Notes: generated by a model from the letters alone, not told the origin. Shown: positions 1,138-50,917, numbered from the stretch's first letter. The stretch: 57,305 nt of DNA from a virus (IMGVR_UViG_3300025120_000059:1-57305); one strand, 5' to 3'. Numbers and translations: made by a program.

Positions 1138-1941
1138 ATGGCAATGGGAAGAAAATTAGTTAAGGCTTTAATGCCTAAAAAGAAGCCTTCCGCAACAGAC
1201 TCTAAAAGTCTTGAGCGTTCTTCTAAAAGAAAACCTGTAGGTTCTGAGCAAAGGTCTGCTGAAGATGCTCGTAATAAAGGAGAAGATAAGGCTCGTAAAA
1301 ATATAGCAGAAGAAGCTAAAGATTTGGGAACTCCTGCTGGCGCAACAGATATGAAAGCATTAGGAGGTCAATCTGATAGTACAGATAAAGCAAATAAACC
1401 TAGAATAGAACGTGCTGGAATGTCTAACCGTAGTAAAGGTATAAGTAAAGAATATAAAGCAGAAGAAGAAAGATTAAAAAGCAATCAAGAAAAACAAAAA
1501 AAACTAACATCTAATCTAAAAGCTTACAAAGGAAAAAATCCAGCCATACAAAAACGAATAGCGAAGTTAGATGAAGAAATTACACTACAAAAAAATAAAC
1601 TAAAAGGAATGAAAAAGAGAAACCTAATAAGACGTAAGGGAGGCGGCTACATGAAAAAGAAAACGGCTGGTGGCGGTTCACTAAAGATGGTAGAAAAGAA
1701 TGGTAAAAAAGTTCCGTTCTATGCTGCTGATGGTGTAGGTAAGATGGCTAAAGGTGGTAAAGTTAGTAAAGCAATGGGCGAAGATCGTACCCGTGTTCCC
1801 GCAGAATACTCAGCAAAAGCTCAGTCTAAGAAACCTGTAAAGAAAAAGATGGGCGGCGGTCAAGTTTACAAACGTAAGCATGGTGGCAAGACTGTTTCCG
1901 GTAACGATGGTAACTCTATCGTAGCCGCATGTTATGACTAA
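1138..1941 (+). CDS. Lys-rich protein with multiple xxGG motifs
   Basis: 267 aa, SD GGGAG; RKGGG, TAGGG, AKGGKV, KMGGGQV, KHGGKTV. Confidence 0.75.
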   Translation: MAMGRKLVKALMPKKKPSATDSKSLERSSKRKPVGSEQRSAEDARNKGEDKARKNIAEEAKDLGTPAGATDMKALGGQSDSTDKANKPRIERAGMSNRSKGISKEYKAEEERLKSNQEKQKKLTSNLKAYKGKNPAIQKRIAKLDEEITLQKNKLKGMKKRNLIRRKGGGYMKKKTAGGGSLKMVEKNGKKVPFYAADGVGKMAKGGKVSKAMGEDRTRVPAEYSAKAQSKKPVKKKMGGGQVYKRKHGGKTVSGNDGNSIVAACYD

Positions 1942-2116
1942 CCGTTCCTCTATAGGAAAACAAATTACTCGTCCCGGTAAAGTTAAGAAAGTAATGGGCG
2001 AGTACAAACGGGGCAAACTTAAAAGTAGTTCCGGTAGAAAAGTTAAGACTAAGAAACAAGCAGTTGCCATCGCACTTAGCGAGGCACGTAGAAAGAAACG
2101 TAAAAGGAGAAGTTAG
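1934..2116 (+). CDS. Small basic protein, DUF6496-like
   Basis: KVKKVMGEYKRGKLKSSSGRKVKTKKQAVAIALSEAR signature. Confidence 0.7.
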   Translation: MTNRSSIGKQITRPGKVKKVMGEYKRGKLKSSSGRKVKTKKQAVAIALSEARRKKRKRRS

Positions 2117-2290
2117 ATGGGACCGCATACACTTATTAAACGGCCACATAATCTAGATGAAATTGTAGGCCGTCCTACTGGACAGGGCTTTGGTGCTGCA
2201 CGTAAGGGACCGGCTGTAATGGGACCGCCGAAGGATGTTGTAGTTGATGAAGACTACGAACAGGGCAAAGCTTTTAAAGTAGAAGACTAA
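2117..2290 (+). CDS. 57-aa protein with GQGFGAARKG motif (not in ORF track)
   Basis: ATG right after the TAG of the previous gene, SD AAGGAG; MGPHTLIKRPHNLDEIVGRPTGQGFGAARKGPAVMGPPKDVVVDEDYEQGKAFKVED. Confidence 0.7.
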   Translation: MGPHTLIKRPHNLDEIVGRPTGQGFGAARKGPAVMGPPKDVVVDEDYEQGKAFKVED

Positions 2291-2292
2291 TT

Positions 2293-3762
2293 ATGGTTGC
2301 AAGAGATCAACTCTTAAAAGCTATTGAACAGGTTGAAAGCGGGGGACGCAGAGATGCTGTTAGTCCTAAAGGTGCCAGAGGCCGTATGCAGGTTATGCCA
2401 GCAACAGCACGGCAACCGGGATATAAAGTTAAACCTGCCCGTGATGAAAGCGAAGAAGAGTATACCAGAGTTGGTAAAGACTATGCTATGGCATTGCTTA
2501 AAAACTATGGTGGTGATCTTGAGGCCACTCTTGTTGCCTATAACTATGGACCGGGAAATGCTAACAAATGGATAGCTTCTGGTAGAAATAAAAGCGATCT
2601 TCCCAAAGAAACCAGAGATTATATTACCAAAGTTAGTAAACAGCTTGGAGGAAAAAACATGGCAACTAAAAAAGAACTTACCGATCAAAGAAAAGCTTTG
2701 CAGCGTAAGGTACGTAGTGGTAGTGCTACTGATGCTGATAAAAGAAAATTAAAACGTGTTCAAATTGAATTGGGTTCTAAGGGTAAGACTACAGCTAAAG
2801 CAAAAGCAAAAGCTCCTGCACCTAAAGCAAACATACAGAAGGCTTCTCTTCAACAGCGTCTTCAACAATTAATGGAGGACTCTCTCCCACTAGATGAAGA
2901 CCTTGCAGGTAGAGCTTTAGATCAAGGCGCATATGCTAAGTATTCAGAACCACAACGAGCCGCTCTTAATAAGGCACTACAAAGAGAACGTCCTCCTTCA
3001 GACTTTGAAAGAACATATGAGCGTAGAGGATCAGGTGTTCCTCAACTTCAACGTAGAGCAGACGATATAGCTTTACCCTTTAATAGAACCACAGGTAATA
3101 GGGGTACGATGCGTCCTGCTAATGTTGATCCTGATCTTCAGCGTGGTGTAAGTCGTGTACCAAGAGGAGATATGAGAATTGGTCCTTCCTCTCCAGAAAT
3201 TACTGAAGCACAGTTTTCTTATACTGATCCCGGTACGATTCCTACTGAAGACCAATTTAGAGCTATGAGAGCTACAGATATAGATGAAGACTTTGCAGGT
3301 AGAAGAGGTTTACCCTCTTTAGAACTTATGTCTAATGCTCCTACACCTCCCAGATCAAGCGGTGGTCGTGGTGATATGGCGGCACAGAATAAAGGTTATG
3401 AAACTCTTCGTGAATACTTTATTGAAGACATGACACCTCGTAAGTCTAAGGTAATGACACCTTTTGGTATTATTGATATTGATAGTACTGAAGATGCATA
3501 TGGTAGTGGCGATGAAATTACAGACATGCAAATTGAAATGGGACAGAAAAAAGGTGGCCGTCTTAAAAAGAAAAAGAAACCAGCCACTCGTAAGAAGGTA
3601 GCTGCTAAAAAGAAAAAGGTTGCTGTAAAGAAAAAGCCTGTTGTACGTAAGAAAGCTGTTGCAAAAAAACCACCCATGCGTAAGAAGACTGTAGCTAAAA
3701 AACCTGCTGGTCGTAAACGTGCAGCCAAAAGAGGCTTCGGCGCAGAACTTAGAGGTAACTAA
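2293..3762 (+). CDS. SLT lytic transglycosylase domain fused to a low-complexity region and histone H1-like K/A-rich tail
   Basis: QVESGG (catalytic E), GARGRMQVMP, AYNYGPG, ETRDYI motifs; C-terminal KKVAAKKKKVAVKKK...RGFGAELRGN. Confidence 0.85.
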   Translation: MVARDQLLKAIEQVESGGRRDAVSPKGARGRMQVMPATARQPGYKVKPARDESEEEYTRVGKDYAMALLKNYGGDLEATLVAYNYGPGNANKWIASGRNKSDLPKETRDYITKVSKQLGGKNMATKKELTDQRKALQRKVRSGSATDADKRKLKRVQIELGSKGKTTAKAKAKAPAPKANIQKASLQQRLQQLMEDSLPLDEDLAGRALDQGAYAKYSEPQRAALNKALQRERPPSDFERTYERRGSGVPQLQRRADDIALPFNRTTGNRGTMRPANVDPDLQRGVSRVPRGDMRIGPSSPEITEAQFSYTDPGTIPTEDQFRAMRATDIDEDFAGRRGLPSLELMSNAPTPPRSSGGRGDMAAQNKGYETLREYFIEDMTPRKSKVMTPFGIIDIDSTEDAYGSGDEITDMQIEMGQKKGGRLKKKKKPATRKKVAAKKKKVAVKKKPVVRKKAVAKKPPMRKKTVAKKPAGRKRAAKRGFGAELRGN

Positions 3763-3763
3763 T

Positions 3764-4120
3764 ATGGTTGACTTTAAATCTAAAATAAAAGCACAGAAAG
3801 CTAAAGATAGAAAACGGGCTGGTAAAAGATCAAAGTCTGTTTCAGGAGATAGAATGCCTTCAGCACCAAGAGCTTCTTTACCCTCTGCCAGAAAAAGCGC
3901 AAACAACAGTGCTGCAATTATGAAAAGCGTTGCTAGTCTTTTTAAAGACAAAGATGGTTTGTCATATCAAGAAGATTATACTATTGATCCTAATACATTT
4001 GAAGCAAGTATAGATGATGTATTTTTTGAAGGTTTTAAAAAAGGCGGTCCTCTTAAAAATGCTAGTAAAAGAAAACGTGCAGCACTTCGTGGGCAGCGTT
4101 CTGAACTGAGAGGATCGTAA
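3764..4120 (+). CDS. Basic protein with shared C-terminal tag
   Basis: Start ATG 3764 after TAAT; ends FKKGGPL...RKRAALRGQRSELRGS. Confidence 0.75.
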   Translation: MVDFKSKIKAQKAKDRKRAGKRSKSVSGDRMPSAPRASLPSARKSANNSAAIMKSVASLFKDKDGLSYQEDYTIDPNTFEASIDDVFFEGFKKGGPLKNASKRKRAALRGQRSELRGS

Positions 4121-4121
4121 T

Positions 4122-4403
4122 ATGAGTAATAAAAAATTAAGAAAGACTGTTACTTCTGATTTAGATAAACCAGAAGAAGAAGAAAAGAAAAGCGAAAGAG
4201 ATGAGCTTTTTGATAACTTAGGATCAGGCATGGGGCTTTTACCTGCTGTTGTTGGGGCGATGGGTCCAAAAGGATTAACATCTATTGGGCTTGTCAAAGG
4301 ACTTCTTGGAAAAAGTAAAGGTGGTAAAGTAGGTAAGAAAAAAACTACTGTTAGAAAACGTGCTGCACTTAGAGGACAACGCTCTGAACTGAGAGGATCG
4401 TAA
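4122..4403 (+). CDS. Basic protein with shared C-terminal tag
   Basis: Ends KSKGGKV...RKRAALRGQRSELRGS; last 16 aa identical to previous gene. Confidence 0.75.
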   Translation: MSNKKLRKTVTSDLDKPEEEEKKSERDELFDNLGSGMGLLPAVVGAMGPKGLTSIGLVKGLLGKSKGGKVGKKKTTVRKRAALRGQRSELRGS

Positions 4404-4404
4404 T

Positions 4405-4728
4405 ATGGCTAAAGACTATGAAGATGATGTAAGTCTTTTTGAAGAACTTCTAAAAGAATATGAAGAAGAAGAAGATGCGGAAGAAGTAGGTGAGCCAGTT
4501 CCCGGTGATAACATTAATGTAATACGTCAACAGGTACAGAGCGGTGGCAGCAGTGGTGGTGGTTCTAACTTTTTAAACACAGCCATGCAACTGGGTAAAC
4601 TTGCTATGATGTTTAAAGAAGGTGGTCAAATAAAAAAGAAGACTAAGAAAAAGAAAAGAGTTGTTCGTGGTGTAGGTGCTGCTAAACGTGGTTACGGTAA
4701 AGCCACTTATTCTAAGAAAATGTACTAA
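4405..4728 (+). CDS. Protein with acidic N-terminus and basic tagged C-terminus
   Basis: FKEGGQIKKK...RGVGAAKRGYGKA. Confidence 0.75.
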   Translation: MAKDYEDDVSLFEELLKEYEEEEDAEEVGEPVPGDNINVIRQQVQSGGSSGGGSNFLNTAMQLGKLAMMFKEGGQIKKKTKKKKRVVRGVGAAKRGYGKATYSKKMY

Positions 4729-4739
4729 GGAGATTTGAT

Positions 4740-5381
4740 ATGGTTGCAGCACTAAGAAAAATTGTAAGTAAACGTGGTCGTAAACGTAAGGCCAAGGGCG
4801 TTAAACCAGCATCGCCTGAACAGAAGATGGGTGCTAAAGAAGCTAAGATGAAGCTTACTGACTTTAAAAAACTTTCAGATGCTCAACAGAAAAAGTTTAT
4901 TAAAGAAGCTAAAGATGCTAACAAGCCAAAGAAAAAGAAAAAGCCTGTGGTAAAACGTAGTTCCAAAGACAATAAAGAACTTCAAAGTCTTATGGCGCAG
5001 CAGAAAAAAGAAATGAAAGAAGATGCCTTGGGATCAGACGTTCTTCCCAAACGCCGTGCGACTGGTCCTGCTGGACAAGAAGTAGAACAAGGTCCGTTGC
5101 TTTCCAAAGTACCTACACCTAATAAAAGAGAAATGTCTCCTGAGACATATAAACGTCAGAAGAGAACAGGACAACGCCGCAAAGGAGAGTATGCTCCTCC
5201 TGCCAGCATGATAGGCGAAGAGATGGGCATGGGTGGTAGAGGTCGTGAGATGATGCCTACTGGTAAAGAACTTGAAGAACTAATTTCAAGTGGCTTTGAA
5301 ATTAAAAAGTATGGTGGTAAAGTAAGGCGTCGTATGGGAGGACAAGTACGAGGCTACGGTAAGGCTCTTCGTGGTTACTAA
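4740..5381 (+). CDS. Lys-rich protein with tagged C-terminus
   Basis: SD AAGGAG; ends KKYGGKVRRRMGGQVRGYGKALRGY. Confidence 0.75.
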   Translation: MVAALRKIVSKRGRKRKAKGVKPASPEQKMGAKEAKMKLTDFKKLSDAQQKKFIKEAKDANKPKKKKKPVVKRSSKDNKELQSLMAQQKKEMKEDALGSDVLPKRRATGPAGQEVEQGPLLSKVPTPNKREMSPETYKRQKRTGQRRKGEYAPPASMIGEEMGMGGRGREMMPTGKELEELISSGFEIKKYGGKVRRRMGGQVRGYGKALRGY

Positions 5382-5574
5382 AGAATTTTTAAAACAGTAT
5401 AATAAATCTGTTCAAGAAGGATATGATGATTATACTTTAATAGATCATTCAGCTACTAGACCTAATAAAGAAGACTATAAAGATTTTAATGAATATATAA
5501 ATAGTCTTTGTAACTATATAGGAAAAAAGTTTAGGTATACATATGGCAGTAAAGCAAAAAAGAAAACCCAGTAA
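5371..5574 (+). CDS. Hypothetical protein
   Basis: 67-aa AT-rich ORF filling the gap between neighbours, GTG start. Confidence 0.5.
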   Translation: MVTKEFLKQYNKSVQEGYDDYTLIDHSATRPNKEDYKDFNEYINSLCNYIGKKFRYTYGSKAKKKTQ

Positions 5575-5842
5575 CATGAAGGGCATTACGATTGGTAGGG
5601 GCATGAAGCGTCCTACCAAGTCAGGTGCTGGTATGACTAAGAAGGGTGTGGCTAAATATCGTAAGCAGAATCCCGGTTCTAAGTTAAAGACTGCTGTAAC
5701 TGAAAAGAAACCTACAGGCAAACGTGCATCAAGACGTAAGTCATACTGTGCTAGGTCTGCGGGACAAATGAAGAAGTTTCCAAAGGCTGCTAAGAATCCT
5801 AATAGCAGACTAAGACAAGCTCGCAAAAGATGGAGATGTTAA
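5543..5842 (+). CDS. Small basic protein, DUF6321-like
   Basis: GMTKKGVAKYR...RRKSYCARS...NSRLRQARKRWRC signature. Confidence 0.7.
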   Translation: MAVKQKRKPSNMKGITIGRGMKRPTKSGAGMTKKGVAKYRKQNPGSKLKTAVTEKKPTGKRASRRKSYCARSAGQMKKFPKAAKNPNSRLRQARKRWRC

Positions 5843-5994
5843 TGAAAAAAGCAGTAAATGCTCCTAAAGGTTTTCACTGGATGAAAGCCGGTAAAGGATT
5901 TAAACTTATGAAGAATCCTACTGGTGGCTATGTAGCACATAAAGGTGCTTCAAAAAAAGCAAGCTTTGAAGTTCAGAAGATACATAAGAAATGA
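5842..5994 (+). CDS. 50-aa basic protein (not in ORF track)
   Basis: MKKAVNAPKGFHWMKAGKGFKLMKNPTGGYVAHKGASKKASFEVQKIHKK; TAATG and ATGA coupling to neighbours. Confidence 0.7.
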   Translation: MKKAVNAPKGFHWMKAGKGFKLMKNPTGGYVAHKGASKKASFEVQKIHKK

Positions 5995-6389
5995 TTAAAC
6001 GTAAGAAAGGCGGCACAGCCACTAAACGTGACCCAAAGAAGTGGGCAGCGGCAAAGGCCAGAGCAAAGCGTAAGATGGGCGGTAAACACTCTGCCAGAGC
6101 TATGCAGCTTGCTGTTAAGTATTACAAAGATTCTGGTGGAACTTATAGCGGTAAGAAAAAGTCTACTAATAAACTTTCAAAGTGGAGCAAGCAAAAATGG
6201 AAAACCAAGTCGGGAAAACCATCTGGCAAAACGGGAGAAAGATATTTACCGGAGAAAGCAATCAAGTCCCTGTCGTCAAAGGAATATGCAGCGACCACCA
6301 AAGCAAAGAGAAAAGGGACTGCTGCCGGGAAGCAGTTCGTGAAGCAGCCCAAAAAGATAGCAGCTAAAACAAAAAGGTTTAGAACGTAA
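5991..6389 (+). CDS. Basic protein, DUF5872-like
   Basis: HSARAMQLAVKYYK..GG.Y, LSKWSKQKWKT, GERYLP motifs. Confidence 0.65.
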   Translation: MIKRKKGGTATKRDPKKWAAAKARAKRKMGGKHSARAMQLAVKYYKDSGGTYSGKKKSTNKLSKWSKQKWKTKSGKPSGKTGERYLPEKAIKSLSSKEYAATTKAKRKGTAAGKQFVKQPKKIAAKTKRFRT

Positions 6390-7063: not shown

Positions 7064-7338
7064 TGGCTAGTACTAAGAACGCACTTGCTATGTGTGATAC
7101 ATGTGGGTTTGTATATCCACATCGTGTTATGCGAATGAACAGTTATGGAATGCTGGTATGTCCCGAAGACTTTGAAGGACAGTTTGATTTAAAAAACCAT
7201 CCTCAAAATCATGTGCCTGATGTAAGAGATAATCCAGCTATTCTTAATCCTCGTCCAGATACAGGTGGGCGTAATCTTACATGGAGTCAGGCCAGTACGG
7301 CATGGGGATCAACAGATAAGTATTGGAATCTAATATGA
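7063..7338 (+). CDS. Conserved Cys-motif protein of the tail region
   Basis: CDTCGF...LVCPED..HPQ; Trp-spaced C-terminus. Confidence 0.6.
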   Translation: MASTKNALAMCDTCGFVYPHRVMRMNSYGMLVCPEDFEGQFDLKNHPQNHVPDVRDNPAILNPRPDTGGRNLTWSQASTAWGSTDKYWNLI

Positions 7339-10300
7339 GCGATTTAACAAGTCAACTAATATCAAATACATATAAACAGATTATACTTGTTAGTTCTTCA
7401 ACTAGCAATACTGGTGTAGATACTTCCCTGAAAGCAGTGCAGACAGGTGATGGTGTTAACACTGCTTTGAAGGTAGCTACTAATGCAGTACAGATCACTG
7501 GTGCGTTGGGTGTAGGTGGTGCTGTATCTCTGGATGGAAATCTTCATGTAGATGACAAAGTATGTGCCAGTGCTTTCTATGGTGATGGATCAAATCTTAG
7601 TGGTGTAACAGCAACGATTGCTGGTAACATATCAGTAAGTAATGCTACAGTGGGTGGCAATCTTTATGTAGGCGGTACTGCCACAGTTGCTGGTGCGGCA
7701 CACTTACAGTCAAGTCTGTCCGTTGCAGGGGCTGCTCAGTTTGCAAGCACGGTAACTGTAGTTGGTGCAGCACAATTTCAAAGCACTGTAACTGCTGTTG
7801 GTGCAGCTACTTTTAAATCTACAGTTACAGTAGAAAATGCAGCAGCCTTAAAAAATAATGTATCAGTTGGTGGTACATTTAATGTAGCTGGCGCTGCCGG
7901 ATTTACTTCCAAGTCTGACTTTAGCAATGATGTATCAGTCAGTGGTCGCCTTGATGTGAGAACATCTGCTTGTATTGGTGGAGTACTTGATGTTGAGGGT
8001 GTAGCTAACTTTGCAACCAATGTATCAGTAAGTGGTAATGTACATGTTGTTGGCAATGTAACCGCTGCTGCATTTTATGGTGATGGTTCTAATATTACAG
8101 GTGTTGCTGCTTCTATTGGTAATCTTCCAGATAATGTTTCTATTGCAGGTTTCCTTAATGTTGGTGAAACTCTTGGTATTACAGGTGGTGCAACTTTTTC
8201 CTCTACTGTCACAGTTGTTGGTGCAGGTACATTTAAAGATAGTGTAAGTGTAAGTGGTAATCTAGCTGTAGGAACTAATGTTTCTATTGCAGGAACTTTA
8301 AGCGTTGGTGGTGCTGTAGACTTTAACAGTACACTGGATATTGTAGGAAATACGTCTATCGGTGGTATGGGTATCATTAATGGACCAGCTAAATTTAATA
8401 ATACAGTTACTGCTCTTGGTGCCACGCATCTTCAAAGCACACTGTCTGTTGCAGGAGCAGCAACCTTTGCATCCACAGTAACAGTAGTTGGTATAGGTAC
8501 ATTTAAGGATGATGTCTCTGTAAGTGGTAATACTAATCTTGGTGGTACAGTAACAATAGCCGGAGCAGTAAGTCTTGCCTCTACTCTTAGTGTAGGTGGT
8601 GCAGCAAACTTTGCAAGTACAGTAACCATTGCTGGCACAAATATTCAAGCTGCTAATGCAAGAGTATGTGCCAGTGCGTATTATGGTGATGGTTCTAATC
8701 TTACAAATGTAGGAATTAGTGGGAATGTTTCTGTAAACAATGCTACAGTAGGTGGTAACTTATTTGTAGGTGGCACAGTTACTGTAGCTGGTGTTGCTAT
8801 ATTTGAAGATGCTGTCTCTATATCAGGTGCGGTAAATATTGCAGGTAATACTTCTGTAGGTGGTACATTAATAACTACAGGTAAAGCTGAATTTAAAGAT
8901 GATGTGTCTGTATCAGGCAACACTGTATTTGGTGGCACACTAAGAGTTGCAGGGGCAACGTCACTAGAAGGTGCCGTTGATCTTAATAGTACGCTTACTG
9001 TGGCAGGAGCAGTATCACTTGCTTCGACTCTAAGTGTAGGTGGAGCAGCAAACTTTGCCAGCACAGTTACAGTAGTAGGTGCTGCTCATCTCCAAAGTAC
9101 AGCATCTATAGCAGGTGCAGCAGTATTTGGCAGTACTGTAACTGTAGTAGGTGCTGGTACGTTTAAGAGTAATGTCTCTGTAAGTGGCGATCTTGATATA
9201 GCTGGTAATGTATCAGTAGCTGGTACACTGTTTGCTGCTGGAGGAATAACTTACGATGGAGATGTTTCTGTTAGTGGTAATTTAGCTGTTGGTGGCAATA
9301 CATCAATAGGTGGCACTCTTAGTGTTACAGGCGCAGTGTCACTAGCATCAACACTATCAGTTGGCGGTGTTACTAATTTTCTTAGCACAGTAACAGTTGC
9401 AGGTAATACAAGACTTGGAGCAATAGTTACTGTTGTAGGAGCGGCACATCTTCAGAGTACAGTATCAGTAGGAGGTGCTGCAAACTTTGCTAGTACAGTT
9501 ACGGTAGTCGGCGCAGCACATCTTCAAAGCACAGCCTCAATAGCAGGTAATACTGTAGTTGGGGGAACTTTACGAGTTGCTGGAGCAACTTCATTGGAGG
9601 GTGCTGTTGATCTTAACAGTACGCTTACTGTTGCTGGTGCAGTGTCACTTGCTTCTACTCTCTCAGTAGGAGGTGCTGCAAACTTTCTTAGCACAGTTAC
9701 TATTACTGGTACAAATGTACAAGCTGTTAATGCAAGAGTATGTGCAAGTGCATACTATGGAGACGGCTCAAACCTTACTGGAATTATTACATCAGTAGAA
9801 GGTAACTTATCTGTAACTAATCTTTTGGTTGGTGGTACTGTAACGGTTGTTGGTGCAGGTACTTTTAAAGATAGTGTTTCTGTGTCTGGCAATATAAATG
9901 TTGGAGGTACTGTCACAGTTGCTGGAGCAGTATCACTAGCCTCTTCATTATCAGTAGGAGGTGCTGCAAACTTTGCATCTACAGTTACAGTAGTTGGTGC
10001 AGCACACCTTCAAAGTACAGCTTCAATAGCAGGTAATACTGTAGTTGGAGGCACACTCAGAGTTGCTGGAGCAACTTCATTGGAGGGTGCTGTTGATCTT
10101 AACAGTACGCTTACTGTTGCTGGTGCAGTATCACTTGCTTCGACTCTAAGTGTAGGTGGAGCAGCAAACTTTGCATCTACTGTAACAGTAGTCGATGCTG
10201 CACATCTTCAGAGTACAGTATCAGTAGGTGGAGCAGCAGTATTTGCCAGTACTGTTACAGTAGTTGGTGCTGCTCATCTCCAAAGTACAGCTTCAATAGC

Positions 10301-12680
10301 AGGTAATACTATAGTTGGAGGTACACTAAGAGTTGCTGGAGCAACATCACTAGAGGGTGCAGTTGATCTTAATAGCACACTTACTGTTGCTGGTGCAGTG
10401 TCACTTGCTTCTACACTAAGCGTAGGTGGAGCAGCAAACTTTGCTAGTACTGTTACAGTAGTTGGTGATGGTACGTTTAAAAGTAATGTTTCTGTTTCAG
10501 GAAATCTAACAGCAACTGGAACGGCTGTTAAATTTATTAATGCTGCTGTATGTGCATCTGCATACTATGGTGATGGTAGTAATATTACAGGTATAGATGC
10601 AGACGTAGGTGGAAATATTTCTGTTAGTAATGTTCTAGCTGGAGGTACGCTCAGAGTTGTGGGAGCAACTTCTCTTGAGGGTGCAGTTGATCTTAACAGT
10701 ACACTTACTGTGGCAGGAGCAGTATCACTTGCTTCTACTCTTTCAGTAGGTGGTGCAGCAAACTTTGCATCTACAGTTACAGTAGTTGGTGCAGCACACC
10801 TTCAAAGTACAGCTTCAATAGCAGGTAATACTGTAGTTGGAGGTACACTAAGAGTTGCTGGAGCAACATCACTAGAGGGTGCAGTTGATCTTAATAGCAC
10901 ACTTACTGTTGCTGGTGCAGTATCACTTGCTTCTACTCTTTCAGTAGGTGGTGCAGCAAACTTTCTAAGTACTGTTACTATTACTGGTACAAATGTACAA
11001 GCTGTTAATGCAAGAGTATGTGCCAGTGCTTACTATGGAGATGGTTCTAATTTAACAGGTATTTCAGCAGATATAAGTGGAAATATTTCTGTTAACAATG
11101 CTACAATAGGTGGTACTTTATTTGTAGGCGGTACTGCCACAGTTGCTGGTGCAGCACATCTTCAAAGTACAGTATCAGTAGGTGGAGCAGCAGTATTTGG
11201 TAGTACAGTTACAGTAGTTGGTGCAGCACACCTTCAAAGTACAGCTTCAATAGCAGGTAATACTGTAGTTGGAGGTACACTAAGAGTTGCTGGAGCAACT
11301 TCATTGGAGGGTGCTGTTGATCTTAATAGCACACTTACTGTGGCAGGAGCAGTGTCACTTGCTTCGACTCTTTCAGTAGGTGGAGCAGCAAACTTTGCAT
11401 CTACAGTTACAGTAGTTGGAGCAGCACATCTTCAAAGTACAGTCTCAGTAAATGGCAATGCTATACTTGGAGGTACACTTAGAGTTGCTGGAGCAACGTC
11501 ACTAGAGGGTGCTGTTGATCTTAATAGTACACTTAGTGTGGCAGGTGCAACACATCTTCAAAGCACAGTCTCAGTAAATGGTGCAGCAGTATTTGGAAGT
11601 ACCGTAACAGTAGTTGGTGCCGTACACCTTCAAAGTACAGCCTCAATAGCAGGTAACACTGTAGTTGGAGGAACGCTAAGAGTTGTAGGAGCAACATCAC
11701 TAGAGGGTGCGGTTGATCTTAACAGTACGCTTACTGTGGCTGGTGCTGTATCTTTAGCATCAACTCTTAGTGTAGGTGGAGCAACCAATCTAGCAAGCAC
11801 TGTTACTGTAGTAGGCGCTGGTACATTTAAAGATGACGTATCAGTAAGCGGTAACACTGTACTAGGTGGTACGCTTAGAGTTGCTGGAGCAACATCACTA
11901 GAGGGTGCTGTTGATCTTAACAGTACACTTACCGTTGCAGGAGCGGTTTCTCTAGCCTCGACTCTTAGCGTTGGAGGAGCAACTAATCTTCTTAGCACTG
12001 TTACTGCTACAGGTAATGCTGGATTCTTAGGCACAGTACGAGTAAGCGGTGCTACAAGTCTTGAAGCTGGTTTGGTTGTTGGTGGTAAGGCAGAGTTTGA
12101 TAGTGATGTATGTGTATCAGGAAATACTCAGTTAGTTGGTACACTTAAAGTAACAGGTGCTACTACTATTACAGGTAACTCAGGCTTCTTGGGAACTGTT
12201 AGAGTATCTGGTGCTACTTCTTTGGAAGGTACTACACACATTACAGGCACAGCTACGATTACAGGTAACTCTGGTTTTCTTGGAACTATACGAGTATCTG
12301 GTAATACTTCTCTGGAAGGACAACTACAGCTAACTGAGTCAGCGGCTGCTGCTGTACATACCACTGCAATTAATGGTGTGACGTCTGTGTCTCTTAACTT
12401 CGGTATAGCACAGAACTTCTTTACCTCTGTTACTGCCGCACATACACTGGCACGTCCTACCAATGCAAGAGTAGGACAGGTTGGTAGTATTCTTCTTATG
12501 CAGGATGGTGGCTCTGGTACGGTTGCTTATAATGCTTGTTGGAACTTTATTGGTGGTACAGCCCCAACATTCTCAACTGCTGATAATGCAATGGATAGAT
12601 TAGATTATATTGTTGTATCTATTTCCACTGATAACACTGCTGAAAATATTCAAGCAGTAATGACACAAGCTTATAGTTAG
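7335..12680 (+). CDS. Giant repetitive tail fibre (beta-solenoid, ~1781 aa)
   Basis: G/A/V/S/T-rich 6/12-residue periodicity, six YGDGSN linkers, C-terminal QDG..G...W.F.GG.APT.ST...D domain typical of marine phage fibres. Confidence 0.8.
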   Translation: MSDLTSQLISNTYKQIILVSSSTSNTGVDTSLKAVQTGDGVNTALKVATNAVQITGALGVGGAVSLDGNLHVDDKVCASAFYGDGSNLSGVTATIAGNISVSNATVGGNLYVGGTATVAGAAHLQSSLSVAGAAQFASTVTVVGAAQFQSTVTAVGAATFKSTVTVENAAALKNNVSVGGTFNVAGAAGFTSKSDFSNDVSVSGRLDVRTSACIGGVLDVEGVANFATNVSVSGNVHVVGNVTAAAFYGDGSNITGVAASIGNLPDNVSIAGFLNVGETLGITGGATFSSTVTVVGAGTFKDSVSVSGNLAVGTNVSIAGTLSVGGAVDFNSTLDIVGNTSIGGMGIINGPAKFNNTVTALGATHLQSTLSVAGAATFASTVTVVGIGTFKDDVSVSGNTNLGGTVTIAGAVSLASTLSVGGAANFASTVTIAGTNIQAANARVCASAYYGDGSNLTNVGISGNVSVNNATVGGNLFVGGTVTVAGVAIFEDAVSISGAVNIAGNTSVGGTLITTGKAEFKDDVSVSGNTVFGGTLRVAGATSLEGAVDLNSTLTVAGAVSLASTLSVGGAANFASTVTVVGAAHLQSTASIAGAAVFGSTVTVVGAGTFKSNVSVSGDLDIAGNVSVAGTLFAAGGITYDGDVSVSGNLAVGGNTSIGGTLSVTGAVSLASTLSVGGVTNFLSTVTVAGNTRLGAIVTVVGAAHLQSTVSVGGAANFASTVTVVGAAHLQSTASIAGNTVVGGTLRVAGATSLEGAVDLNSTLTVAGAVSLASTLSVGGAANFLSTVTITGTNVQAVNARVCASAYYGDGSNLTGIITSVEGNLSVTNLLVGGTVTVVGAGTFKDSVSVSGNINVGGTVTVAGAVSLASSLSVGGAANFASTVTVVGAAHLQSTASIAGNTVVGGTLRVAGATSLEGAVDLNSTLTVAGAVSLASTLSVGGAANFASTVTVVDAAHLQSTVSVGGAAVFASTVTVVGAAHLQSTASIAGNTIVGGTLRVAGATSLEGAVDLNSTLTVAGAVSLASTLSVGGAANFASTVTVVGDGTFKSNVSVSGNLTATGTAVKFINAAVCASAYYGDGSNITGIDADVGGNISVSNVLAGGTLRVVGATSLEGAVDLNSTLTVAGAVSLASTLSVGGAANFASTVTVVGAAHLQSTASIAGNTVVGGTLRVAGATSLEGAVDLNSTLTVAGAVSLASTLSVGGAANFLSTVTITGTNVQAVNARVCASAYYGDGSNLTGISADISGNISVNNATIGGTLFVGGTATVAGAAHLQSTVSVGGAAVFGSTVTVVGAAHLQSTASIAGNTVVGGTLRVAGATSLEGAVDLNSTLTVAGAVSLASTLSVGGAANFASTVTVVGAAHLQSTVSVNGNAILGGTLRVAGATSLEGAVDLNSTLSVAGATHLQSTVSVNGAAVFGSTVTVVGAVHLQSTASIAGNTVVGGTLRVVGATSLEGAVDLNSTLTVAGAVSLASTLSVGGATNLASTVTVVGAGTFKDDVSVSGNTVLGGTLRVAGATSLEGAVDLNSTLTVAGAVSLASTLSVGGATNLLSTVTATGNAGFLGTVRVSGATSLEAGLVVGGKAEFDSDVCVSGNTQLVGTLKVTGATTITGNSGFLGTVRVSGATSLEGTTHITGTATITGNSGFLGTIRVSGNTSLEGQLQLTESAAAAVHTTAINGVTSVSLNFGIAQNFFTSVTAAHTLARPTNARVGQVGSILLMQDGGSGTVAYNACWNFIGGTAPTFSTADNAMDRLDYIVVSISTDNTAENIQAVMTQAYS
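8920..11995 (+). repeat. Long internal coding repeats in the fibre gene
   Basis: About 10 copies of GTLRV(A/V)GATSLEGAVDLNSTL with near-identical DNA, e.g. cttcaaagtacagcttcaatagcaggtaatactgtagttggagg recurring near 10008, 10800 and 11232. Confidence 0.9.
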
Positions 12681-21189: not shown

Positions 21190-21620
21190 TGAAGTTTATA
21201 AAAATACAACCACAATCAATAGAATTAATTTGGCCTCTGGTTAAAGACTTAGTTCAAAAACCAATAGATTTTAATCTTGGTGAGTTTAATTTAGAAGATG
21301 TATATAACTGGTTAACAAATGGATATATGCATTTATGGATTATAGGTAATGAAGAAGAGATATTAGTAGCAGTAGTTACAGAGTTTGTTACTTATCCAAG
21401 AGAAACTAGACTACGAATAGTTCTTGCCGGTGGTAAGAAAAATAATATGAATAGATGGTTTGATATTTTTTGGGATAAAGATTCTGAGATACATAAGTTT
21501 GCTAAGAAAAATAATGTAAAAAGATTTGAAGTGTGCGGTAGAGATGGTTGGCTTAGAGTTCTTGCAAAGGTTGGCTTTAAAAAGTTCTGCACTGTTTTAA
21601 CAAGGGAAGTGGAAATATGA
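21189..21620 (+). CDS. Acetyltransferase-fold-like virion assembly protein
   Basis: IVLAGG...FEVCGRDGWLRVL..GF; position equivalent to T7 gp13 / P22 gp14. Confidence 0.55.
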   Translation: MKFIKIQPQSIELIWPLVKDLVQKPIDFNLGEFNLEDVYNWLTNGYMHLWIIGNEEEILVAVVTEFVTYPRETRLRIVLAGGKKNNMNRWFDIFWDKDSEIHKFAKKNNVKRFEVCGRDGWLRVLAKVGFKKFCTVLTREVEI

Positions 21621-23995
21621 CTGTGAAACAAAATATTAAAATGTTTTTAGATGACTTATCTGTAAAGGATAAGATTGAAGTTCTTAAAGAACTTTATAAA
21701 GACATTGCAGAACTTGGTGTTGAGGGAGATACTGAGCTTGCCCATATTAATACCTTTGAAGCTAATCTTCTTAGAAAGTGTGGTGGTTCTGGTACGCTTA
21801 ATCCCAACACAGGTCTTCCTCAGTATAGTAAAGGTGGTGGTGGTACTCCGCAAGCTACCTTCCAGAACACTAATCAGTTCTCCAGAATACCTGATGAAGT
21901 AGCTCCCTTTGCTTCTGATGTTTTGACAGAGGCTCAAGATTATTATCGCATGATAATGAATCAGGGATATGATCCTTATACTGGTGCGGTAACTGCTCCT
22001 CAGACAGAAGAGCAAACAGAAGCACAGGCTGGCCTTGCTGCACTTGGCAGGGCAGGACAGGGAACTACTCTTCAACAGGAAGCTCTTGACCTACAGCGTC
22101 AGCAGGGAGAGAAGTTTACTCCTGAAGTAGCACAGGAATATATGTCTCCGTATCAGAGAGCAGTCACTGATATAGAAAAGAGAAAAGCTGTTGAAGACTT
22201 TGAACGTAATATTATGCCACAGTTTGAAGCACAGGCTGTACAGGCTGGTGGTATGTCTGGTCTTGGTTCACGGGCTGGTGTACAGGCTGGTATTCTTGGA
22301 GAAGGTTTGCAGACAAGGCTTGGAGATATTGAAGCTAAAGGATTGCAGTCATCTTTCCTTAATGCTCAACAGCAGTTTCAGAATCAAAAGCAACGGGAAG
22401 CAGGACAGGCAAGTCAGACTGCTGCACTTGGCCCTGCTATGTTTAGTCAAGGTCTTGCTCAACAGGGAGCCTTGCAAACTGTTGGTGAGCAGAAGCAGAA
22501 CCTTGCTCAGAAAGCTTTGGATGAACAATACTTTAAGTTTTTGGAACAGAAAGCATTTCCTGAAGAACAGCTTGCTAAGTATTCTGGGTTTGTCTATGGT
22601 AATCCCCTCTTGTCGCAGCGTGATGTAACCAGTACATCACAGGCTGGTCGTAACTTTAATGCACCTAGCAGTGGCGCACAGTTGCTTGGTACTGGTCTTG
22701 CTGCTGCTAATACATTCCGTCAGATTGCACCTCAGACTTTTGGTTCCTTTACTTCAGGAGTTGGTAGTGTATTTGGTAAAACTGGTGGTGGTTTGTCTGA
22801 TATTATTGAAAGGCAAGATGGTGGTAATTTAACTGCTTATGAAGCTTCACGTAAAAGATTAGCAAATCTTCCTCAGTTTAATAATAGAGAAACTGGTAGA
22901 GCTAGAGCAGCAAGAGAAAAAATAGAAACAGACGAAGCACGAAACTTACTGTATACTCCTGCATCTGATTTTACAGGACTAGAAACAGGACCACTTCCAG
23001 AACCTTCTATATCTCCAGAAGATTTAATTAAACTAGCAGAAAGAACTCCTAGCGAAGCTCCTTCTGGTATTGATGTTGAACTTTATAATAGGTTTGGAGA
23101 TAGAAATCGACTTACTCAAGATCAGATTGATGCAAGAATGCGGCCTGATATGTATGACCCTGATGTTGTAAGAAGACGGGCCGAAGAAAGAGAACGTAGA
23201 AGAGAAGGCTTCTATGGTAAGTCTGATAAAGAAAGAAGAGCTTTTAATAAGAGTATGGCTGATCGTCGCAGGGCTGAGAGAGATGCTGACTATCAACGTA
23301 GAAGAGAACTTATTGGTGAGGCTGATCCTATAGGAACTCTTCTGTCACAGTTATCTCAGAGCCTTCTAAGAACAAGAGACTATGACGAAACAACTGGTAT
23401 AGGTGCTAGACTTGCTGAAGGTCTTGGCAATACAACCTCTAGACTAAGCGAAGCAGATAAAGAACGTAGAGCAAAGCTTCTTAAAGTTGAGGATGAGTTT
23501 GGAAGAAGAAGAGCCGAAGAGTCTGAGAAAGAGTTTGAGGCTGAAGGTCAGCTATTGTCCAGAGGAGAAGAGCGTGAAGCACTGGCACTGGCAAGAGAGT
23601 TTAAGCTTGAAGATAAGATACTTGACCTACCGTATGCTAAACAGCGTAAGGCACTTGAGCTTATCAATGCTGGTCTGAAAGGTGAGAAGCTTAAAGCAGA
23701 GATTGAAAAACTAAAAGCTGAAGCAAAAGCAGAAGGTACAACTGAATTAAGTCCTACTGAAACTAATGCTCTTATAAAAATGTTTGATAGTAATAATGCC
23801 GCAGTTTTTGGACAAGCTTTTATTGATGGAAAACCATTTCCTGAAATTGAAGCAGACTTAAACAAAGCTAGACAAAAAGCTATAGAAGTTGCTAATACAC
23901 GAGGCATCCAAGCGGCAAATGAAGAATACATGAAGATAGCTCAACGAATAAAAGATGCTTATAACGCAGGACAATATAGTAAAAATAAGGTATAA
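21617..23995 (+). CDS. DNA ejection / pilot protein
   Basis: GDTELAHIN...NPNTGLPQY-SKGGGG N-terminus, YMSPYQ..V and GLGSRAGV motifs, Q/A-rich helical body. Confidence 0.7.
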   Translation: MTVKQNIKMFLDDLSVKDKIEVLKELYKDIAELGVEGDTELAHINTFEANLLRKCGGSGTLNPNTGLPQYSKGGGGTPQATFQNTNQFSRIPDEVAPFASDVLTEAQDYYRMIMNQGYDPYTGAVTAPQTEEQTEAQAGLAALGRAGQGTTLQQEALDLQRQQGEKFTPEVAQEYMSPYQRAVTDIEKRKAVEDFERNIMPQFEAQAVQAGGMSGLGSRAGVQAGILGEGLQTRLGDIEAKGLQSSFLNAQQQFQNQKQREAGQASQTAALGPAMFSQGLAQQGALQTVGEQKQNLAQKALDEQYFKFLEQKAFPEEQLAKYSGFVYGNPLLSQRDVTSTSQAGRNFNAPSSGAQLLGTGLAAANTFRQIAPQTFGSFTSGVGSVFGKTGGGLSDIIERQDGGNLTAYEASRKRLANLPQFNNRETGRARAAREKIETDEARNLLYTPASDFTGLETGPLPEPSISPEDLIKLAERTPSEAPSGIDVELYNRFGDRNRLTQDQIDARMRPDMYDPDVVRRRAEERERRREGFYGKSDKERRAFNKSMADRRRAERDADYQRRRELIGEADPIGTLLSQLSQSLLRTRDYDETTGIGARLAEGLGNTTSRLSEADKERRAKLLKVEDEFGRRRAEESEKEFEAEGQLLSRGEEREALALAREFKLEDKILDLPYAKQRKALELINAGLKGEKLKAEIEKLKAEAKAEGTTELSPTETNALIKMFDSNNAAVFGQAFIDGKPFPEIEADLNKARQKAIEVANTRGIQAANEEYMKIAQRIKDAYNAGQYSKNKV

Positions 23996-23999
23996 TTAA

Positions 24000-26900
24000 A
24001 TGGCAACTAACTTTAGTATTTTTACTGAGGAACAAACTAGTCCTGCTGAAAATGTTTTACCAGAAAACCAGACACAATCTTCTGGAAACTTTTCTATATT
24101 TAACACTACTGAACAAACTCAACAGGCACCTACAAAAACTAAGGAGCCTGAACAATCTACTATGGATAATCTTGTTAAGAATCAGGGCTGGTTGAAAGAT
24201 GCTAAGACTATCTATAAGCATGAGAAGGGTGAGGACTATAAAGGTTCTGACAAAGACTTAGACTATTGGTTTAGGAATAGGCACTCTCGCTTTGGTAATG
24301 ACCTAACTAATTTAGGTATGACTGCTTATGATGCTGCTCAGTTAATGGATGACGATGTTAAACGTGCATGGGTTAATTCATTAGATACATGGGACAATAC
24401 AGAAGGCAGTCTTGGTTCTTTTGCAAACGCTGTCTTTCAAACTGTAACTGATCCTACAGCTATTGTAGGTGCAGGTAGTTTAGGTACAGGTCTTGCAGCA
24501 AGAGCGATTGGTAGAAAAGCTGCTCTTGATGGTTTTAAACAAACTTTAAAATCACAAATTAAAGATCAAGCTGTTAAACAAATTTCAAAAACAAAGGTTG
24601 GGAAAAAAGTTGCTGAAGAAGCTGCAAAGAAAGAAGCTGTAGAAAAAAGTGGTAAAAGAATAGCAGTAGAATTAGGTGCTATTGGTGCTGGTTATACTGC
24701 GTCAGATGATCTTATGTATCAATCTTTTAATATTGATACTCAGGAAGCTATGGAAGACCCTCAAGTAACCGAAACTGATTATCTACAAACTGCGGCTATG
24801 GCATTGGCAGGTGTTGGAATTGGCCTTGGACTTGCTGCCCCTTCTGTTGCGCTTAGAAAACTTGGTAGAAAAAGACAAGCTAGAAGAGAAGCAGCAGAGC
24901 AACAGCGTATAGTTGACGAACAGCCTAAAGTTCCTGAGACAACCAAGACATATTCTAAAGTTGATGGTTCTGTTGGTGCAAGAAATATAGCAGATCAGGC
25001 ACAGCAAGAACTAGAAGTAGATGGTGTTCTGAATATAGATATAGGTGAGGTTGTTCCCCTGCAAAATCTTAGAGAGATTAATGAGGAGCTTAATGCTGCT
25101 GGCTTTAGTGATCTTGCAAAAACAGGACCGGGTAAGTATGCTGCAACTAAACTAACTCAGTTACAATTCTTTAAACCAGAAAGTGCTAGTGTAGCTCGTA
25201 CACGTACAGAAAAAATACTAGGTCGTGTTGGTAAAGTATTTCGTTCTGATGCTGGTGTTACAGGAACTACATCTGAAGCACAACAACGTCTGTCAACTGG
25301 AAGACGTAGGATAGATAACTCTCGTCAACTTTCTGAAAGACAGATAGCAACATCTTTTGAAAATTTAAACAAAGCTGTTAGAAAAAACTTTGGTGTAAAA
25401 AATCTTAGTCCTATTCAGGCTAAATTAGTTAACGATGCTTTGCGTGGTCGTGAAGCAGCAGTACAAGAACTTGCAAAAAATGCACCTGATGTTTTAGAAC
25501 AGGTTCAAAAGATGAGAAATAATGTTACTTCTCTTCAGGAAGATTTGTTAGCAACAGGTGCAATTAGAGATGGTTCTAATCTAGAGACAAAGATTAAAAG
25601 TTCTATGGGTACAGGTGGCAAAGACGAACTATACCTGACAACTTCATATGAAAAGTTTGATAACCCTAATTGGGGTAAGGAAGTTACTACTCGTACAGGT
25701 AAGCGTGGTAAACCTATTGTTGTAGAAGCAAAAGAATATCTTCAGTCTCAGGCTAAGTCAAATAATAAAGCATTTGGTATTGCTATTGGTAAAAAAGAAC
25801 GAGGCATACCTCTAAATGCTAAAGATCAAGAAGTATATGATAGATTTATGTCTGAAGATGGAGAGATAAATAATACTATTGCTAAAATATTAGATACAAA
25901 CGAAGACGATGTGCTTAAAGTATTTTCTAATAATGCAATTATTAATAAGGCTAATGCTGCTAAAATTCTTAAAGGAAAGGAAGCTATTCCTGAAGAGATT
26001 AGAATGTTAATGGGTGAGTACGAAGACCCGTTTGTTAACTATGCAAGGACTGTTTCTAAACTAAATCAAACCATAGCAAACATTGATTATGAAAAAGATA
26101 TAGTTGCTCTTGCTAATAAAGGATTGATACAGGGAGTAAGAACTAGCAAGTCTTCTAGTAACGACTTTGTTCCTGTAGGAGATAGCTTACCACTAAGAAA
26201 AGATATTGATCCTAAGTTTGGTATGGATGATGTTGATACAGGTATAGGCGGCATCTATGCATATCCTGAAGTTGCTGCTGGTATTATTAATGGTAATGAA
26301 ATCTTTCAAACAACTATTAAACCACTGCAAGCTTACCTTGCATTGCAGGGCCATACCAGAGCAGCCAAGACTGTCTACAGTCCCACTGCTATTGCTCGTA
26401 ACTTTATAGGTGCAGGTTGGATGTCGGCTGGTGCTGGATATCTTAACCCACGTAACCTTAGTGAGATACCTAAAGTTATGAAGGGTCTTTATAGAATGAG
26501 TGATGAAGACCTTAATGCTGAAATGGAAAAAGGTATTGCTCTTGGTTATCTGCAAAGTGGTACAGATTTGGGTTCTTTCCGTGCAGCACTTAGTGATGCT
26601 GGTGATGCTTCTTTCTGGAACTTTACTAACAAAGCTTTGTCTGATAAAAATAGTCTGGCAAAAAGAGCTAAGAAGTTTAATGTTAGTGCTGTTAAATTCT
26701 ATCAGTCAATGGATGATATGTGGAAGCAGTATGCCTTTCTAAATGAGAAGGGAACTTACAGACAAGTTCTTGCTGATAAGGGTATTAATCCTGATGATGT
26801 TGTTAGAAGATTTAACAGTGCTGATGGTAAGCTTATTGAGATAACAGAGCTAGATGAGTATGCTGCTAATGAAGTTGCAAAGCATATGCAGAACTATGCT

Positions 26901-33967: not shown

Positions 33968-34044
33968 TGGCGCACTTGGCAGGACTCGAACCTGCAACCT
34001 ACAGATTAGAAGTCTGTTGTTCTATCCAGTTGAACTACAAGTGC
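33968..34044 (-). tRNA. trnR: tRNA-Arg (anticodon TCT)
   Basis: GCACTTGTAGTTCAACTGGATAGAACAACAGACTTCTAATCTGTAGGTTGCAGGTTCGAGTCCTGCCAAGTGCGCCA; full cloverleaf, GTTCGA T-loop, encoded CCA. Confidence 0.95.
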
Positions 34045-50882: not shown

Positions 50883-50911
50883 TTGTATATCTCTATAGTA
50901 TAGTGTATAAT
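50883..50911 (+). promoter_or_regulatory. Rightward promoter for terL
   Basis: TTGTAT-N17-TATAAT, 6 nt before ATG 50918. Confidence 0.6.
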
Positions 50912-50917
50912 AGTACT

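Follow-up and report, generated by a model that had tools for sequence, protein, structure and literature searches.

A shared C-terminal tag on dissimilar proteins of a marine podophage gene array: a candidate address label for virion cargo

Five consecutive genes (positions 2293-5381) of an uncultured, marine, short-tailed phage, the IMG/VR virus record IMGVR_UViG_3300025120_000059, encode proteins that share one bipartite C-terminal peptide, here called the tag, attached to N-terminal parts, here called cargo, between which no homology is detectable. The whole record, 57,305 bases long with a completeness estimate of 97%, is referred to as the window. The tag begins with a [basic]-x-GG-x-[V/I/L] box (GG box), continues with a basic linker, whose length ranges from 0 to about 50 residues, and closes with the element RG-x-[G/R]-x-[A/E]-x-RG (RG element), after which one residue precedes the stop codon (11 in the 107-aa protein). 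It is strictly C-terminal, it is portable between cargos and under selection, and its genes belong to a variable array. The best available explanation, a hypothesis, is that the tag marks cargo for loading into the virion.

The tag and its five carriers

The sequence-only reading of this DNA had quoted six tag strings, all of which were found at their places in the sequence (Table 1), five in the tagged proteins and one inside a 57-aa open reading frame (ORF) upstream of them. The first carrier, of 489 aa, opens directly with the catalytic domain of an SLT lytic transglycosylase (aa 6-101; 65.2 bits against a Pfam family cut-off of 21.3), with no leader visible by eye, no signal-peptide predictor having been applied; its Lys-rich linker is built of 33-nt repeats. 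The 118-aa protein is predicted by AlphaFold2 (AF2) to be mostly disordered, with only three short helices and a mean predicted local distance difference test (pLDDT) of 63.7. As for the 93-aa protein, described earlier as hydrophobic, its middle is indeed Gly-rich and mildly hydrophobic, a character shared by a segment of the 107-aa protein, but the highest Kyte-Doolittle 19-mer score in any tagged protein is 1.25, below the usual transmembrane threshold, and none has a transmembrane-like segment.

The common C-terminal tag is real and robust. In a shuffle test based on local alignment of the last 24 residues and 2000 composition-preserving shuffles, the tag pairs among the 489-, 118- and 93-aa proteins gave z scores of 7.0-13.7, with none of the 2000 shuffles as high as observed, and the 107-aa tag gave 3.0-4.4 against the others (1-16 of 2000 shuffles as high). 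A profile of the 118-aa family from which the window copy had been left out recovered the 93-aa tag at E 1.2e-12, the 107-aa tag at 7e-3 and the SLT protein at 0.41; the 213-aa protein went unmatched, and when all frames were shuffled 20 times over the profile gave no match at E<=0.01. A regular expression (regex) for the tag hit five of the 282 six-frame ORFs of at least 40 aa in the window, namely the five tagged ones, and a profile built from 30 tags found only the same five places in the six frames of the record (E 6e-15 to 7e-7); the regex was derived from these very ORFs and four of the 30 profile rows came from the window, so that both counts test only the absence of a sixth tag.

The cargo parts show no such likeness. 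Once the tags are removed, BLASTP clustering assigns each of the five window proteins to a different cluster, and in profile-profile comparison all 10 pairs of cargos remain at a probability of at most 2.6%, in agreement with the earlier claim that the N-terminal parts are unrelated. At first the 118-aa and 93-aa cargos looked homologous (97.6%); this proved to be an artefact of members of the 118-aa family that had entered the 93-aa profile through the common tag, and was gone when a clean profile was used. The four tagged proteins other than the SLT enzyme match no Pfam family at E<=0.01, or even at E<=5, and no PHROGs family at E<=0.01, and at E<=1 the NCBIfam library gives the tagged proteins only scores far under its cut-offs.

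Distribution, conservation and exchange of the tag

The tagged genes form the middle of an array of twelve head-to-tail genes (positions 1138-6389) within the late structural block, tightly packed with a stop-to-start spacing of 1 nt. The array had been placed between head and tail genes, which holds in outline; more exactly, it lies between two SU10_adaptor (PF24175) paralogues. Promoter-like and terminator-like sites in the array show no excess over shuffled sequences. The downstream adaptor has 522 relatives in IMG/VR, of which the best 80 loci (80-100% identical) were kept. Together with the window these loci hold 114 tagged ORFs, of up to 843 aa in the relatives, and their 113 cargo parts of at least 25 aa form 18 BLASTP clusters. 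The 30-tag profile found 395 proteins among 8000 scored candidates, and among the matches listed the tag lay no more than 15 residues from the C-terminus in 120 of 120. An exhaustive HMMER search of 1.84 billion cluster representatives yielded 123 with the tag at E<=1e-3. It is C-terminal in all 123, the profile match reaching the last residue in 99 and stopping 1-11 residues before the end in the other 24, and the RG element stands one residue from the C-terminus in 100. The 116 representative cargos of at least 30 aa fall into 31 BLASTP clusters. The cargo thus varies while the tag persists across related genomes, as the cargo-loading interpretation had supposed.

Recognisable cargo domains are few. 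Among the 123 representatives Pfam finds SLT in two and LysM in three and no others, and among 74 proteins scanned with PHROGs six match transglycosylase or lytic families and none any other family. The ESM Atlas returned only unnamed viral clusters (score 0.90), and PDB sequences gave no match to the tag profile at E<=10. An apparent sulfotransferase cargo, P0208 (180 aa, on a 770-nt contig), was dropped as evidence of cargo since it probably arose as a chimera during assembly: tag-less PF03567 proteins match its first part and a normal tagged protein its last part, the joint being a shared AKDIY stretch. P0208 is still counted among the 123 representatives and makes up one of the 31 clusters; it is a caution against inferring cargo from short metagenomic contigs. 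The tag peptide is undescribed in the libraries and literature searched, the latter being open-access full texts, including PMC9599517, in which no such tag is described and a search by motif string was not possible.

Conservation is concentrated in the tag. Alignment of the 118-aa family shows hardly any variation in the tag columns, whereas substitutions and indels abound in the middle of the protein. The ratio of non-synonymous to synonymous differences (pN/pS) is 0.30 in the tag versus 0.76 in the cargo (9 sequences, 36 pairs), which means that purifying selection is stronger on the tag. Position statistics were taken from the representatives with [RK]G-x as their last residues, 100 in number. 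R-3 and G-2 occur in every one of the 100, G-9 in 99 and Arg(-10) in 93. Position -7 is coupled to position -5: Arg(-7) always goes with Glu(-5) (51 of 51), and Gly(-7) with Ala in 35 cases and with Glu in 13. The strict Arg/Glu pairing argues for a specific epitope rather than a plain polycation.

The array itself is highly variable. In the 31 loci in which both flanking genes are present it measures 1.55-6.16 kb and holds 0-5 tagged genes. The regex had indicated four arrays without tags; two of them, L032 and L033, have a variant tag that it missed, and two, L067 and L080, are truly without. In contigs from marine RNA libraries (four runs of one study), three of the four runs contain a junction of window position 2294 with 5372, by which exactly the five tagged genes are skipped; in these block-less contigs TAAA followed by the window from 5372 onward spells TAA and then ATG at the start of the 67-aa ORF that borders the tagged block. 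In one further contig 4059 is joined to 4356, a junction that runs from one gene's tag into that of the following gene. The contigs from these libraries span most of the array, and DNA was possibly present in the libraries, so this cover is not evidence of transcription; bins without cover, such as 1236-1482, are uninformative. The 57-aa ORF just upstream is kept in all arrays inspected, even in those without tagged genes.

Tags and cargos are also combined in different ways, and other C-terminal modules exist. One cargo cluster can bear different tag subtypes, which, with the stronger selection on the tag, supports the earlier notion of a portable signal. A sister form, the YD tag, consists of GG boxes followed by ...G-[ND]-x-x-[VI]-[AS]-[AS]-[CL]-Y-D-stop, and ends the first array gene as ...V-A-A-C-Y-D; YD-type C-termini were found on 27 ORFs from 26 sources in 6 cargo clusters, twice in tandem in L080 (5301-5942 and 5967-6494). 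A third module (...H-T-x-K-H-M...T-F-x-x-A-H...V-G-[RK]) occurs as a free gene of 56-70 aa in relatives (L009, 6642-6812; L030, 6067-6279), and in L080 (7927-9915) it is the C-terminus of a 662-aa SLT protein (PF01464, E 3e-7), quite unlike the tag. GG boxes occur without cargo as well, in a 53-aa ORF (L037, 6774-6935) made up almost entirely of K-S-K-GG-x-V-RRR-GGG repeats. The mixing of subtypes, the L080 SLT protein, the six clusters with a YD tag and the block-less and tag-to-tag junctions indicate that the C-terminal modules behave as exchangeable parts, with the repeated tag DNA as a recombination joint. The tagged genes are accessory, dispensable and hypervariable.

What the tag may do

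We infer that the tagged proteins are accessory virion-internal or ejected proteins, and that the tag is an uncleaved peptide for their docking and retention, a reading that we hold to be evenly poised between right and wrong. It is drawn from the character of the proteins, which are late, disordered, polybasic, dispensable and hypervariable and among which the only activities recognised are directed at peptidoglycan, in a phage with an endolysin and a holin of its own. Presence in the virion, docking to a partner and ejection are presumptive. Proteins bound to DNA are stripped at the portal by the packaging motor and cannot ride in with the DNA; internal proteins would therefore have to be enclosed in the procapsid before packaging, and it is this order of events that suggests a docking peptide in the terminal RG element and the GG box. 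A disordered tail such as that modelled for the 118-aa protein would be as expected for a linear docking motif.

The following sequence of events may be envisaged. The array proteins would be made late, alongside the structural proteins, and the terminal RG-heptad element and GG box would bind an acidic surface inside the procapsid, for which the candidates are the scaffold with its acidic N-terminal part, the capsid protein, through its inner face or its acidic N-terminal region, and the portal with its charged C-terminal region. Any protein bearing the tag would thereby be enclosed ahead of DNA entry. During packaging, the basic linker would hold the cargo on the DNA, and at the next infection the cargo would leave through the tail, into the cell envelope or the cell, where SLT and LysM cargos would act on peptidoglycan. 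The tag DNA, repeated at the 3' ends of genes, would serve as the joint at which cassettes are gained, lost and exchanged. In its fullest form the proposal is of an undescribed, uncleaved C-terminal address label in a protease-less clade of marine podophages, which loads the capsid with a polymorphic set of exchangeable proteins, peptidoglycan enzymes among them and perhaps effectors of counter-defence or take-over, by way of acidic docking in the procapsid and subsequent hand-over to DNA, and whose DNA doubles as a cassette-swapping joint; this we put forward tentatively, as something short of probable.

Of the original cargo-loading interpretation, then, the portable tag and the variable cargo stand, and targeting to the head stays presumptive. 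It had come with two other possible roles, of which binding of packaged DNA may contribute to the mechanism by way of the basic linker. A cleavage site at the GG is the least likely of the three: neither Pfam nor PHROGs recognises a prohead protease in the head module, be it of the window or of its relatives, the same outcome as in the sequence-only reading, and the strongest conservation runs downstream of the GG box to the last residues, contrary to expectation for a segment that is cleaved and lost. Prediction of a complex of the tag with the capsid protein and the candidate scaffold, run with no controls, scored 0.00 against a mark of 0.32 and is evidence neither way.

Several observations weigh against the docking reading. 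The full tag is present in none of five cultured relatives searched whole (two have partial matches), and nothing credible came of a tblastn search with two tags in 50,697 phage records; the tagged clade has no cultured member. The capsid protein is the same highly conserved one, 85-93% identical, in L067 and L080, which have no tagged genes, so that no dedicated receptor stands out. Direct likeness of the 213-aa tag to the 118-aa and 93-aa tags is marginal (z 2.0-2.1; 76-101 of 2000 shuffles as high), and this tag is tied to the others mainly by intermediate forms that bridge the subtypes in relatives, e.g. ...KKRAALRGYGKALRGF. The small cargos are disordered and fast-evolving (see pN/pS above), which makes missing homology weak evidence of separate origin. 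In the 118-aa family the synonymous component pS is also lower in the tag (0.32) than in the cargo (0.49), and part of the tag's conservation may lie at the DNA level, through gene conversion or a ribosome-binding site (RBS) that overlaps ...LRG-stop. Lastly, the whole array, untagged genes included, is rich in Lys (16.7% of codons) and Arg (8.0%) in comparison with other late genes (4.1% and 4.1%), which would also fit plain nucleic-acid binding.

This last point leads to the strongest alternative, that the tag is a nucleic-acid-binding or DNA-condensing tail of the protamine, H1 or AT-hook kind, which is not an address but lets the proteins coat or neutralise DNA in the head or in the infected cell. 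The extremely basic linkers, with the Lys-rich repeats of the SLT protein, would suit such a function, as would a summed net charge of about +255 for the 12 array proteins at one copy each, the L037 peptide with nothing but GG-box and Arg repeats, and the untagged neighbours (the DUF6496, DUF6321 and 132-aa proteins), which are just as basic. We nevertheless consider it unlikely, although it may be partly right. Invariant Gly, Ala and Leu and the fixed Arg(-7)/Glu(-5) pair would be needless in a non-specific polycation; in 100 of the 123 representatives the tag keeps to one residue from the C-terminus; the sister YD tag has a non-basic, hydrophobic and acidic end; and, by general knowledge of stripping at the portal, DNA binding alone cannot load the head.

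Alternatively, the tag might act only after ejection, by co-assembly into a conduit that spans the envelope or as an anchor to peptidoglycan, membrane or another host target. The only recognisable cargos, SLT and LysM, and the Gly-rich, mildly hydrophobic segments of the 93- and 107-aa proteins would be in keeping with this, and podophage ejection proteins are described as building trans-envelope channels (PMC8402733, PMC8954989). Such a role is improbable given the low hydropathy of all tagged proteins and their lack of transmembrane-like segments; strongly cationic tags would moreover repel one another without a polyanion, and the existence of relatives without any tagged gene makes an essential conduit unlikely.

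Quite improbable, too, is an origin as ordinary tandem paralogues, in which one small basic gene was duplicated and its disordered N-terminal parts diverged while the C-terminus was kept alike by function, gene conversion and RBS overlap. The high pN/pS of the 118-aa cargo and the reduced pS of the tag are what this would predict, and over 75 nt the two ELRGS tags show 81% identity, with full identity through the stretch spanning stop and start; ...CTGAGAGGATCGTAA provides a Shine-Dalgarno-like GAGG shortly before the next ATG. That ...AGAGGA... overlaps the RBS of the following gene is, however, insufficient to explain the conservation: among 54 distinct tails with RG or KG at the end, the codon of the terminal Arg is AGA in 30 and CGN in 22, the other 2 having Lys (AAA), and the 22 with CGN, the window's last tag among them, have no GAGG. 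RBS overlap may add to tag conservation. Identical peptide tags differ synonymously, a sign that selection acts on the amino acids; and the paralogue explanation has also to contend with SLT and LysM cargos of independent known folds, with different tag subtypes on one cargo cluster and with the other C-terminal module on the L080 SLT protein.

A role of the tagged genes in lysis, as holin-, spanin- or endolysin-like accessories whose basic tail acts on the envelope from within, is very hard to credit: the SLT domain and the charged C-termini of holins speak for it, and against it stand the separate endolysin and holin of the phage, the want of a transmembrane segment in any tagged protein, the number and size of the genes (five here, up to 843 aa in relatives) and their place within the head-tail structural block. 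Two further candidates were rejected. A ubiquitin-like reading of ...ELRGG fails as the last residue is Gly in only 38 of the 100 representatives and there is no beta-grasp domain, and a sorting signal of the GlyGly-CTERM or sortase type as no hydrophobic helix follows the GG box.

Genomic setting and comparison with known systems

The portal protein of the phage is 39-42% identical to those of the Pelagibacter phages HTVC027P and HTVC023P and the Roseobacter phages CRP-901 and CRP-902, by which the phage is a distant relative of the HTVC023P-type podophages (pelagiphages). Its downstream adaptor is 36-39% identical to the adaptors of HTVC023P and DSL-LC04. In HTVC023P and CRP-901 both adaptor types are present, in reverse order to that of the window and about 0.5-1 kb apart. 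The major capsid gene is truncated by the contig end; in near-identical relatives a 305-aa PF25209 protein is encoded directly upstream of what would be window position 1. The relatives' capsid protein matches PF25209 at E 2e-13 and has an acidic N-terminal region, and the tagged genes start about 2 kb downstream of its gene. The candidate scaffolding protein, proposed from its position between the portal and capsid genes and from its sequence, has no family match in Pfam or PHROGs, and could be one docking partner of the tag.

Table 1. Array genes, tag elements and other features of the window.
Feature	Position	Strand	Tag elements, matches and remarks
SU10-adaptor-like gene, 236 aa	416..1126	+	Upstream bound of array; PF24175 E 6e-17, phrog_2941
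First array gene, 267 aa, isoelectric point (pI) 10.3	1138..1941	+	Four GG boxes; C-terminus ...GNDGNSIVAACYD (YD tag)
DUF6496 protein, 60 aa, pI 12	1934..2116	+	PF20106 E 4.3e-10
Conserved 57-aa ORF, acidic C-terminus	2117..2290	+	Internal tag-like GQGFGAARKG, aa 22-31 (nt 2180-2209)
Tagged protein 1, 489 aa, N-terminal SLT lytic transglycosylase	2293..3762	+	KKGGRL aa 419-424 (nt 3547-3564); RGFGAELRG aa 480-488 (nt 3730-3756); PF01464 E 5e-18, phrog_2013, phrog_342
Tagged protein 2, 118 aa from its ATG, basic	3764..4120	+	KKGGPL aa 92-97 (nt 4037-4054); RGQRSELRG aa 109-117 (nt 4088-4114)
Tagged protein 3, 93 aa, Gly-rich mildly hydrophobic middle	4122..4403	+	SKGGKV aa 65-70 (nt 4314-4331); RGQRSELRG aa 84-92 (nt 4371-4397)
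Tagged protein 4, 107 aa, acidic N-terminus	4405..4728	+	KEGGQI aa 71-76 (nt 4615-4632); RGVGAAKRG aa 88-96 (nt 4666-4692), then 11 residues, ...YGKATYSKKMY
Tagged protein 5, 213 aa, basic, pI 10.5	4740..5381	+	KYGGKV and RMGGQV (nt 5307-5324, 5331-5348); RGYGKALRG aa 204-212 (nt 5349-5375)
Conserved 67-aa ORF	5371..5574	+	Downstream edge of tagged block; GTG start overlaps end of last tag
DUF6321 protein, 99 aa, pI 12	5543..5842	+	PF19846 E 7e-13
Basic ORF, 54 aa	5830..5994	+	Conserved in relatives
Basic protein, 132 aa, last array gene	5991..6389	+	phrog_14910
Adaptor gene, 224 aa	6389..7063	+	Downstream bound of array; PF24175 E 2.2e-14
Large presumed ejection proteins	21617-23995 and 24000-28235		Away from array
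Endolysin	28236-28619		Lysis cassette apart from array
Holin	29685-30086	-	Lysis cassette apart from array
tRNA-Arg(TCT)	33968-34044
Second endolysin-like gene	44499-44990	-
Terminase	50903-52459
Portal	52551-55097		Long charged C-terminal region
GroES/Cpn10-like gene	55445-55885		Between portal and candidate scaffold, as in cultured HTVC023P-type phages
Candidate scaffolding protein, 312 aa	55960..56898	+	Strongly acidic N-terminus

Some neighbouring features deserve mention in their own right. The DUF6321 protein of the array matches the C-terminal ends of PHROG profiles of 99-928 positions, and in other phage families this domain is the C-terminal end of larger proteins; with several larger PHROG families (336-928 positions), the match of the stand-alone protein falls at the very C-terminal end. 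Judged from these matches, DUF6321 may be another terminal module, fused in some cases and free in others. In HTVC023P, gp51-gp53, encoded directly upstream of the adaptor gene (L081, 10966-11994), are small basic proteins with looser tag-like ends: one ends in ...RGGGAAVRGMGFKGVF, another in ...KKYYGGMIEI, which resembles the ...SSGGGINI end of T7 gp7.3, and IRGFGAAR occurs internally. The likeness of these ends to the tag and to T7 gp7.3 may be due to chance. Downstream of the array, positions 7323-12680 encode a 1785-aa tail-fibre-like protein with many near-identical repeats rich in Ala, Gly, Val, Ser and Thr. The share of AGA among Arg codons is 0.43-0.48 in the array and other late genes versus 0.22 in six sampled minus-strand (early) genes.

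Among known systems the functionally closest, by analogy, are the capsid-targeting sequence (CTS) of phage T4, the signal of P1 DarB and the cargo-loading peptides of encapsulins. The T4 CTS is removed by the prohead protease. It is the only part common to a diverse set of proteins, IPI, IPII, IPIII and Alt, and is described as sufficient to encapsidate foreign proteins (PMC3012670, PMC9024508). The resemblance lies in a short conserved peptide that is the only common part of diverse, fast-evolving, small and mostly basic proteins encoded near head genes, and, as with the T4 internal proteins, the tagged genes are accessory and variable. The T4 signal, however, is N-terminal (PMC9024508) and targets the scaffolding core, whereas the tag is C-terminal and bipartite, belongs to a podophage and has no sequence similarity to it, and no protease was recognised here, an absence at the level of recognition and not a proof. 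Since the N-terminal position and the protease are wanting, the array is not a member of the T4 CTS family; it may work in a like manner.

In phage P1, a capsid-targeting signal at the N-terminus is reported to direct DarB, cargo of the Dar anti-restriction system, into the head (PMC9024508). That system is experimentally tested and concerns one cargo of a myophage, unlike the C-terminal tag with its many cargos, known from sequence alone. Encapsulin cargo peptides are usually C-terminal and uncleaved, and hydrophobic and Gly-rich rather than polybasic. According to PMC8346489 and PMC11866011, a short peptide on diverse cargo loads the HK97-fold encapsulin shell, and the array resembles this in its short terminal peptide, its diverse cargo and its proximity to the gene of an HK97-fold shell protein (PF25209). 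Encapsulins are cellular compartments without DNA, and binding of the tag to the capsid would be the counterpart presumed here.

The podophages T7 and P22 offer a different comparison. T7 gp16 has its SLT domain within an ejected protein, so that the enzyme is delivered from the virion (PMC8954989); it is one large protein, whereas here the SLT enzyme is a separate tagged gene. The T7 virion proteins gp6.7 and gp7.3, the former bearing the annotation of an injected protein, resemble the tagged proteins in their small size, their richness in Lys and Gly and a GG near the C-terminus; comparison of the tag with either by hhalign gave a probability of 0.1%, with no homology detectable. P22 does without a prohead protease, and its scaffold, which binds coat protein through a basic C-terminal helix-turn-helix, leaves intact; we know of no common tag on P22 gp7, gp16 and gp20. 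The internal proteins of P22 are described as ejected (PMC8402733, PMC4992974), and differ from the accessory, variable proteins of the array in being essential.

The known head-targeting peptides of phages, those of T4 and P1 DarB, are N-terminal and come from myophages, and the selection of internal and ejected proteins by podophages is poorly understood. A portable C-terminal tag offers a testable handle on cargo selection in a group with relatives among the most abundant marine phages. It is present on at least 31 cargo families and singles out dozens of orphan proteins as candidates for injection, and, should the tag suffice for packaging, it would be a simple label with which to load foreign proteins into a podophage capsid. 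If the proposed function is true, the tag would parallel, in a phage, the cargo loading of encapsulins, and would be a counterpart of the T4 CTS that is C-terminal and independent of a protease.

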